In this document: in pieces, positions 46,848-48,585 of the stretch
Layout of the letters: each line of letters opens with the position of its first letter
Position numbering within the stretch: the stretch's first letter is position 1
Assembly: GCF_052425735.1 (NCBI RefSeq)
Contig: NC_135764.1
Span: 868,001 to 932,000, forward strand
DNA: 64,000 bases
Direction of reading: 5' to 3'
Origin: Oculina patagonica
Lineage: Eukaryota
The notes under the pieces: generated by a model
Told to the model about the DNA's origin: nothing
The model's database searches: none
What the model saw: only the letters and a program-made list of their open reading frames with translations
Program-made: the position numbers and the translations under genes

Positions 46848-48091
46848 ATAAATCTATAAGCTCATTCTTATCAACCCAGGAATTAAACTCATCAGAATAG
46901 CCCCTCCATTTCACGAATACTTTATTACCTCTTCTTTTTATTACCTTCTCAATTCTATATATGTCCTGTGTTGTTTTTTGAATCTCTTGTTCGTAAAACG
47001 TGCCTTGAATAACTTCGCCATTGCAATCCTGTATTTTATACGTAGGCGGTCTGGTATGTTGTTGTTGTGAAATCGTAAATACCTCTTCAGTCCACCGCGG
47101 AGTATATCCCTTCTCAAAAGTCTTTTTCTTTTTTACAATCCTCACTCTATCACCTACGTTAAATTTAAAGTGAATTGGACCGTCGCTTTCCTTATCATAA
47201 AGATTTTTATAAACGATATGCTCATTCTTTTTTAGACTCGCCTCCGTAGGTGTCATCTTAATTGATGAATGGACATTGTTATTATATTCACTCACCATAT
47301 CATCTAACACATCAATGTATTTATGGGTTGAATTAGCTGAAAAATATTTCCACATCCTCTCTTTCATTGTTCGATTCCATCTTTCTACAACGCAGGACTT
47401 TTCTTCGTTTTCGGTAGAGTAAAGCTCAACAAGAGCCTGTACATGCTTATTGTAGAATTCTTTTCCTTTGTCCACCCACATCTTATCAGGCTTCCGGTGT
47501 TTAAATATTTGCTTTAGCGCATTAGCGACTTCAATACCTGTCTTACTTTTCAATGGTATACCGTAGAATTCCGGTTATAAGCCCTGGGCTTATACAACTT
47601 CGTAAGGGTTTTTGGGTGGGCTTATATGCGGAGGGGCTTATATTCGGGAGGGCTTATAAGCGGAAGGAAAAAAACGTTTCGAAACGAGCCTCGGGAGTGT
47701 TGATCGAAATACGTTTTTAAGTTAAAAACGCACAAAAAAGCATCATTTAGCCCTGTTCAGTACTGTCATCCGGTAGAGGGGGGCTTATATCCGGGGGGGC
47801 TTATAACCGGATGTATTTTTTTGTTTCCAGGTTAATGGGCCTATAACCGGGGGGGCTTATAAGCGGGGGGGCTTATAACCGGAATTTTACGGTAATCCAA
47901 CCATACTTTGAAAACACGTCAATCACCATTAATAGGTATTTAATGCCTTTGTTAAATTTAGAAAACGCAGTCATATCGACTAAATCAGCAGCCCATATCT
48001 TGTCAACACCGTATGTGTAAACACGTCTTTTAGGAAAGCTTCTATAAACAGGTTTATGTAACTCGTCAGCTAATTTATCAGTCCACCTCAC
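46846..48091 (-). pseudogene. Retroviral-like (rve) DDE integrase with C-terminal chromodomain, interrupted by a MITE
   Basis: Removing 47561-47894 restores ...SKYGWIIPLKSKTG... and a 303-aa frame with WAADLVD / WVDKGKEF / VVERWNRT and chromodomain YRIEKVIKRRGNKVFVKWRGYSDEFNSWV. Confidence 0.95.
47561..47892. mobile_element. 332-bp pogo/Tc2-like MITE inserted in the integrase, TA TSD
   Basis: ta|CCGTAGAATTCCGGTTATAAGCCC ... GGGCTTATAACCGGAATTTTACGG|ta; internal gggcttata repeats. Confidence 0.95.
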
Positions 48092-48585
48092 GCTTTTTTT
48101 ATCCCTAAACCGAGCTTTTGCTTATTGTTGATTATCGTTCTAGCAACCATTCCCCACTTCGGCATGTCTCGATAAGGGATAGAGTCAAGCGACTTTACCA
48201 TTTGTCTGTCACATTCTCCCTTGTTTTTTCCCATGTCATAACAGATATCATGATGCGCTGCAATCTCATCCACTTTGTTTTTTGGTTTTACATTCCACTT
48301 TAGAACCTCACCTGTAGCTGGATCGTATTGTAGTTGTTTGTCTAGCGGGTTATAAGGTCCCATATACTTGTAACCAGGAGGTGTCCAACCATATTTCGGT
48401 TTCGGTAATTTTCCAATTAGTTTGTGTACGTCAATAGCGCCACCACTCTTTGGCTTTGATATGAATGTGCACTTCTTTATTCCACACACTTCACATATTC
48501 CTCTCAGCATTGGTCTCCCATTCTTCGATGTTGCCTCTGTAAGATTTTTTGTCGACGTTTTATCTTTACACTTTACGCAATACAT
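48088..48585 (-). CDS. Zn-ribbon plus parvovirus-VP1-type phospholipase A2-like protein
   Basis: N-terminal CVKC...CEVC; PPGYKYMGPYNPL (Ca-loop-like) and VDEIAAHHDICYD (catalytic HD). Confidence 0.85.
   Translation of the reverse strand: MYCVKCKDKTSTKNLTEATSKNGRPMLRGICEVCGIKKCTFISKPKSGGAIDVHKLIGKLPKPKYGWTPPGYKYMGPYNPLDKQLQYDPATGEVLKWNVKPKNKVDEIAAHHDICYDMGKNKGECDRQMVKSLDSIPYRDMPKWGMVARTIINNKQKLGLGIKKA

Follow-up and report, generated by a model that had tools for sequence, protein, structure and literature searches.

A Polinton integrase without a start codon of its own, joined to a PLA2-like protein in one open frame or, probably, by −1 ribosomal frameshifting

In a large class of Polintons, an integrase gene that has no start codon lies directly behind a PLA2 gene, either fused to it or overlapping its end at a slippery heptamer and read in the −1 frame; we consider it likely that the −1 arrangement operates by programmed ribosomal frameshifting (PRF), and the resulting fusion would be packaged in virions and probably cut at a GxG motif. 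The recoding arrangement is real, family-wide, apparently undescribed and of a known kind, and the copy in the 64,000-nt stretch of DNA analysed here (the window) is an atypical, broken example of it. Judged from sequence, the relatives display two architectures, a phase-locked heptamer, a spacer of 7–8 nt and covarying stems, and the anatomy of their −1 class is that of a canonical −1 ribosomal frameshift. An earlier note on the window had proposed a −1 PRF that fuses the PLA2-like protein to the integrase. Across the family this proposal is strongly supported by heptamer phase and switching, the spacer, the covarying stems, the lack of a start and the existence of natural fusions; it fares less well in the window copy, which has a weak stem, not above shuffles, and a MITE-like insertion.

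The junction in the window copy and its element

The upstream gene is a 165-aa PLA2 ORF in the zero frame (48088..48585, minus strand), which begins with DUF5679 and continues into a parvovirus-type PLA2 domain (Pfam PF08398, PLA2-like, E 9e-10; also DUF5679). Its 3′ end reads GGG ATA AAA AAA GCG TGA and contains the slippery heptamer A_AAA_AAA (48094..48100, minus strand), a run of seven A in phase with the PLA2 frame. The integrase frame is at −1 relative to this ORF and continues as ...KKSVRWTDKLADELHKP...; it opens 10 codons 5′ of Val / VRWTDKLADELHKP, rather than the 9 codons first counted between the TAA and Val. The 5′ part of the integrase (47893..48093, minus strand) has no ATG before the first catalytic Asp (47986-47984), and the first ATG (47974) falls four codons further on. 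Inspection of the sequence upheld what the earlier note had said of the in-phase heptamer (48100-48094), the −1 integrase and this late ATG. The boundary between the two proteins carries Gly-Leu-Gly (48103..48111, minus strand), a candidate protease site, and the TGA that ends the PLA2 ORF is overlapped by a GTG lying in frame with the integrase (48088..48091, minus strand). That ORF stops 4 residues past GLG and has no pX-like C-terminal domain; it is a PLA2 protein that lacks the pX-like 'X' tail by which published PLA2X is defined.

The integrase of this allele is divided by a MITE-like insertion of 334 nt (47559..47892), of very high copy number, which is bounded by terminal inverted repeats and has 16-nt repeats inside. 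The 3′ part of the integrase (46846..47558, minus strand) retains the chromodomain (PF00385, E 1e-5), and the broken protein is 58–61% identical to intact sister integrases. Contigs in four of four sequencing runs join across the MITE site, and the 334-nt MITE is present in this allele, while the element lacks it in other alleles or copies. Because the MITE interrupts the integrase, this allele has no full-length PLA2–integrase fusion. By arithmetic, the figure of about 468 aa put forward earlier holds only if the insertion is not counted; frameshifting on this allele would give a protein of 237 aa. In the interval that separates the integrase from the left terminal repeat, a perfect 25-nt inverted repeat surrounds a 109-aa ORF (46321-46772), possibly another small insertion.

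The whole lies in an 18-kb Polinton/Maverick element (45905..64000, extending to ~64116 in window-equivalent coordinates) delimited by terminal repeats. The ends are AGTAGT, the first 250 nt of the terminal inverted repeats are 100% identical and there is a 6-bp target duplication; given the identical repeats, the element inserted recently. The list of sequencing runs that match it indicates that the host is a coral. These features, together with the rve integrase and its chromodomain, a double jelly-roll major capsid protein (62506..63798, minus strand; PF21738, E 1.6e-58) and an A32-like packaging ATPase (48635..49429, plus strand; PF04665), identify a Polinton/Maverick (adintovirus). A 1320-aa ORF (57896..61858, minus strand) is a probable protein-primed family B polymerase, with polymerase motifs recognised by eye and no Pfam PolB match at E 0.001, and a probable adenain-like cysteine protease (53817..54242, minus strand) has adenovirus proteinase as its best, weak PDB match (E 0.093). 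A small Gly-rich basic ORF (50321..50941, plus strand) contains seven GG-hydrophobic or GxG-hydrophobic motifs and, by eye, resembles the pX-like part present in cis in insect PLA2X. Repeated GG/GxG-hydrophobic motifs occur in this ORF and in the small basic ORFs at 55555-56481 and 56488-56979, all candidate protease-processed core proteins. An ORF beside the polymerase (57040-57795) has a repeated helical motif and no Pfam match, and three paralogous host exons, MFS transporter-like, flank the element (29576-30088, 32900-33427, 43747-44262).

Frames, heptamers and RNA structure in relatives

Within the window's own genome, an integrase-start pattern gave 201 matches, and the 130 loci fetched are best hits rather than a random sample; 127 could be anchored, yielding 110 distinct junctions (67 in −1, 27 in +1 and 16 in frame 0). 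The −1 frame is found in 26 of the 29 junctions whose longest A-run is at most 6, compared to 41 of the 81 with a run of at least 7, so that the scatter follows long homopolymers, with assembly error and mutation not separable here. Own-genome −1 copies carry NCA AAA AAC behind several distinct PLA2 variants. The upstream ORFs of L005, L008, L012 and L002 represent at least four PLA2 variants joined to a nearly identical junction and integrase, which suggests module swapping at the GxG boundary.

From metagenomes, the best 80 of 486 matches were taken, of which 72 were anchored and 66 had a GxG and could be classified; related loci are among them, and the counts overstate independence. These 66 loci comprise 38 in −1, 19 open fusions, 1 in frame 0 with a stop and 8 in +1; L141, called as a +1 junction, was rejected as a false call with no PLA2. 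Among the 38 −1 relatives (still within the best 80 of 486), XXX_AAA_C-type heptamers (A_AAA_AAC, U_UUA_AAC, G_GGA_AAC) are in phase with the PLA2 frame in 31 of 33 cases. Moreover, the heptamer is switched at the identical place, to U_UUA_AAC in L175 and to G_GGA_AAC in L161 and L234. None of the 38 has an ATG in the linker, and 29 of them have no CTG, GTG, ACG or TTG there either. An ATG near the junction does occur in a few copies (L039, L071, L072, L176, L188 and L200), lying just upstream of the linker in L188 and L200. In L039, L071 and L072 the integrase-frame ATG overlaps the PLA2 TGA where sisters have ACG or CGA; decay of a CpG may account for this, or a change to an integrase with its own start. 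The zero-frame stop directly follows the heptamer in 8 of 30 loci. Free PLA2 proteins retain the imprint of this arrangement: many end in KN-x-x-RR or LN-x-x-RR, and KN, LN or GN occurs in the tail of 62 of 72. The KN-x-x-RR and LN-x-x-RR tails are what the heptamer, the spacer and the stem arm look like once translated.

Other Polinton integrases are built differently, with their own Met and an N-terminal domain of ~55 aa that is missing from the PLA2-linked class. In a genome collection, 5 of 29 loci are PLA2-linked, and most of the others have an own-Met integrase with an extra N-terminal domain. Polinton integrases also appeared in prokaryotic genome bins (L217-L245), probably on eukaryotic or viral contigs that contaminate these bins. 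Scans of viral contigs with P0001 and with alignment A1 returned no relatives. In one metagenome lineage that has an A-run but no stem, closely related copies fall into frames 0, +1 and −1 (L168, L169, L174, L179, L180, L183, L186-L188, L193, L196, L200, L206-L208); because of this scatter over three frames, an A-run in −1 by itself proves little.

The −1 class in relatives has a stem of 9–14 bp at a spacer of 7–8 nt, with compensatory changes and at least two unrelated stem designs. The first is a long-range stem whose 3′ arm consists of the F-x-R-R codons ~60–70 nt further downstream; it emerged with a longer folding window, adopted after a 75-nt fold failed to show it. It was evaluated on 40 rows, that is, 49 candidates minus 8 of the other design and the near-duplicate L083, with 13 rows of three further types also excluded. 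Across these rows, 92.7% of cells are paired, compared to 85.2% when shuffled and 25–49% when slid, and 18 cells have both sides changed (against 5.1). Covariation is 0.195 against 0.098, scores inflated by the relatedness of the loci, and there are only 3 pairs with double changes, not above shuffles (318/500). RNAalifold alone recovers only 4 consensus pairs of this stem, with almost no energy (−0.39 kcal/mol). The second design is a local hairpin with 9 of 9 bp in all 8 of 8 loci, a spacer of always 8 nt, a loop of free length and four columns changed on both sides. Taking the 15 nt that begin 6 nt past the heptamer, downstream pairing falls below −12 kcal/mol in 27 of 30 metagenome loci versus 3 of 204 control positions. 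Stems are not universal: in the own-genome family with the most copies the local stem is weaker (z −0.4 to −2.1), and the own-genome copies L039, L062, L065 and L101 are stemless with open integrase frames. A search of Rfam gave no frameshift-element match in 7 loci. Overall, the features of canonical −1 PRF, namely an in-phase heptamer, a −1 frame without its own start and a structure 5–9 nt downstream, are found together in relatives, and frameshifting in the stem-bearing ones is highly probable.

Open fusions, the GxG motif and comparison with known systems

The second architecture, a single open frame, supplies natural examples of the joined protein. A search for longer homologues returned 34 integrase-fused among 106 proteins, some of which may be gene models or A-run variants, and a search with the first 190 aa of a fusion gave 1274 matches. 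Among the matches listed, both Pfam domains are present in 119 of 120. All 120 have a GxG a short way ahead of the integrase (116 located by script and 4 by eye), compared to a background of 0.014 per 30 residues inside the integrase. KK or KN is found in just 1 of 116 linkers of natural fusions. On a quick tree, the fused and frameshift states each arise by several changes, at least three of which are forced by well-supported branches. A polyprotein form also exists, in which P0094 (2 members) combines an adenain-like protease, PLA2, integrase and chromodomain in one ORF.

The structural model of the P0100 fusion (pLDDT 71.8, pTM 0.46) predicts a helical PLA2 domain and a low-confidence linker (111-141), is uninformative on domain contacts, and has an integrase part closest to foamy virus integrase. 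The GxG also ends the PLA2 domain of ordinary PLA2X proteins, and it agrees with the GX|G motif of the mavirus protease but departs from the full adenovirus consensus. Mavirus virions are described as holding integrase, and the mavirus protease as cutting GG|X and GX|G (PMC6048507; PMC6428243). By this analogy, the GxG would probably be cut by the element's protease, freeing the integrase.

In the proposed mechanism, most ribosomes would stop at the end of the PLA2 ORF and release free PLA2 protein, and a minority would pause at the stem, slip one base by tandem tRNA slippage and read on. The low yield of fusion would set a low integrase-to-PLA2 ratio, the PLA2 part would bring the fusion into the virion, and the viral protease would release the integrase at GxG. 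That the PLA2 protein is a virion component we infer from its likeness to the PLA2 of parvovirus VP1 (PMC8502044). For the Polinton branch as a whole, we lean slightly towards a broader account in which the integrase is made only as a PLA2 fusion, with repeated switches between open and −1 states and independently evolved stems that set the integrase dose in virions, from which it would be freed by protease. Animal Polinton virions have not been observed so far, according to the portion of PMC8097293 covered. If true, eukaryotic dsDNA viruses that integrate would have a recoding system that is widespread and so far undescribed, and there would be sequence-level evidence for animal Polintons spreading as virions with their integrase, the recoded PLA2–integrase fusion being a predicted virion protein. 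It also means that the annotated start of many Polinton integrases is a Met past the first catalytic Asp, or is invented.

Retroviral gag-pro and gag-pol −1 PRF employs a slippery heptamer (A_AAA_AAC in MMTV), a spacer of 5–9 nt and a downstream structure. The Polinton junction of relatives also has a slippery heptamer, a spacer and a downstream structure, and likewise sets an upstream protein before a frame bearing an rve integrase; also as in retroviruses, some relatives use one open frame, and the modelled natural fusion is predicted to fold like foamy virus integrase. However, a Polinton is a dsDNA element with a jelly-roll capsid, its upstream PLA2 is not Gag, only integrase lies downstream, and its stems, unlike retroviral stimulators, are simple long or long-range hairpins. 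With this arrangement, a DNA virus would have converged on the gag-pol strategy of retroviruses. In bacterial DNA mobile elements of the IS3 family, OrfA and OrfAB provide a DDE enzyme via −1 frameshifting on an A-rich heptamer. Polintons, also mobile elements made of DNA, would likewise obtain a DDE enzyme by a −1 shift at an A-rich heptamer, but the upstream part is a putative virion protein rather than the DNA-binding domain of the bacterial system.

Closer to Polintons, alpha adintovirus PLA2X (PMC8502044; PMC11071296) shares this PLA2 domain, which there too closes with a basic stretch and GxG, although published PLA2X runs into a pX-like domain where the Polinton ORF runs into integrase. 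MV02 of the mavirus virophage (PMC6048507) is also an rve integrase, found in virions there and accompanied by a protease that cuts GG|X and GX|G, with packaging in Polintons a predicted counterpart; unlike the Polinton protein, it is described in the part of that paper covered as a separate gene product, with no fusion or frameshift. The portion of PMC8502044 covered names PLA2X and makes no mention of a PLA2–integrase junction. In the preprint PMC11071296, supplement file 2 of Buck et al. labels two in-frame fusions PLA2-Integrase, and the −1 shifts put forward in section 16 concern Penton ends and Hexon-Adenain, with none for PLA2-integrase. BK012049 is given there as two genes, PLA2X and Integrase, whose overlapping protein sequences imply an in-phase A_AAA_AAY. 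The literature covered, with the supplement of PMC11071296 included in part and subscription papers and RepBase outside its scope, yielded no report of a PLA2–integrase frameshift, and neither did the portions covered of PMC11131425, PMC3671162, 10.64898/2026.06.19.733378, PMC5803895, PMC11296320, PMC8097293 and PMC12567637. The earlier suggestion that similar arrangements may already be noted for adintoviruses is accordingly right for labelled in-frame fusions (PMC11071296) and finds no counterpart for the frameshift in the sources covered.

The window's lineage and rival accounts of its junction

The window's junction is spanned without a gap by two contigs of run X4 and by contigs of runs X8 and X13, the last listed as a viral metagenome, none with an indel at the A-run; locus L220, from another collection, has the same junction and again no indel. 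The frame offset is therefore not an assembly slip. In the X8 and X13 contigs, a substitution at 48093 makes a run of eight A. Eight A in reads had been held earlier to indicate a simple fused ORF, but here the eighth arises by substitution and the −1 offset stays.

In a quick tree, in which the window's row is short, its lineage clusters with L197/L198 (SH-aLRT 92). These have A_AAA_AAC, a longer linker and a stem; the window's lineage is ~40 nt shorter between GLG and VRW. The window's own stem is a weak one of 6 bp (48086-48081 with 48049-48044; feature 48044..48086, minus strand) that starts 7 nt past the heptamer and is not above shuffles; its counterpart in L220 has 8 bp, and the arm duplexes score −8.6 in the window and −9.0 in L220. 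Folding of the window copy is no better than that of shuffles (z +0.1 to +1.5). In agreement with the earlier inspection by eye, which had found no convincing downstream pseudoknot, a scan of the window's lineage gave none above chance, 94 and 62 of 100 shuffles being equally good. Nevertheless, all members of this lineage seen keep the −1 frame, unlike the neighbouring A-run lineage. The lineage appears to be a reduced form that keeps the −1 overlap and an A7–A8 run, with little linker and a weak stem; because of the latter two, frameshifting would be less efficient or would depend on the A-run itself. Frameshifting in the window's lineage is somewhat favoured.

Several other accounts of the junction were weighed. 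Within the window's lineage, RNA polymerase slipping on the A-run, or the ribosome sliding along it, could produce the fusion in place of stem-stimulated tandem tRNA slippage. Although the weak stem and the runs of A7 in the window and A8 in X8 and X13 are compatible with this, it leaves U_UUA_AAC, G_GGA_AAC, the fixed spacer and the stems of relatives unexplained, and a run of 7–8 is short for polymerase slippage; we regard it as unlikely. Alternatively, the integrase might start at the GUG that overlaps the PLA2 stop, by stop-restart or from a separate transcript; the integrase would then be free rather than part of a fusion. The GUG-A overlap with UGA, the A at −3, the unchanged GUG in L220 and the spanning contigs, and the fact that an integrase from this GUG would include all conserved residues speak for such a start. 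However, no such codon exists in 29 of 38 −1 relatives (among the best 80 of 486), and in-frame fusions show the joined protein to be the usual form in the family. Sister L197/L198 also have the Val, through a different codon, suggesting protein-level conservation. A GUG restart is consequently improbable.

It is more doubtful that the window's lineage has lost a working signal, with integrase barely made and the element moving with the integrase of other families. Such a loss would fit the largely missing linker, the weak stem, the single copy of the lineage in the assembly and the many other families around (the 201 pattern matches), but the junction length is kept in three other runs and L220 at about 90–96% identity, and the element inserted recently, as its identical repeats attest. 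Splicing of an upstream ATG exon onto the integrase frame is very improbable: a TTTAG does lie just 5′ of the A-run in the window, but its AG is not conserved, the best acceptors in relatives have a median pyrimidine share of 0.43 and reach at least 0.6 in 3 of 38 (among the best 80 of 486), and heptamer phase and stems are left unexplained. An RNA-like run, X19, contributed no sequence over the junction, which is no proof of absence. Finally, a homopolymer error, against which the earlier note had advised checking, or a one-off mutation in this copy might be suspected from the own-genome A-runs of at least 7, which vary in frame (40 of 81 not −1), but is largely refuted by the indel-free contigs of X4 (two), X8 and X13 and by L220.
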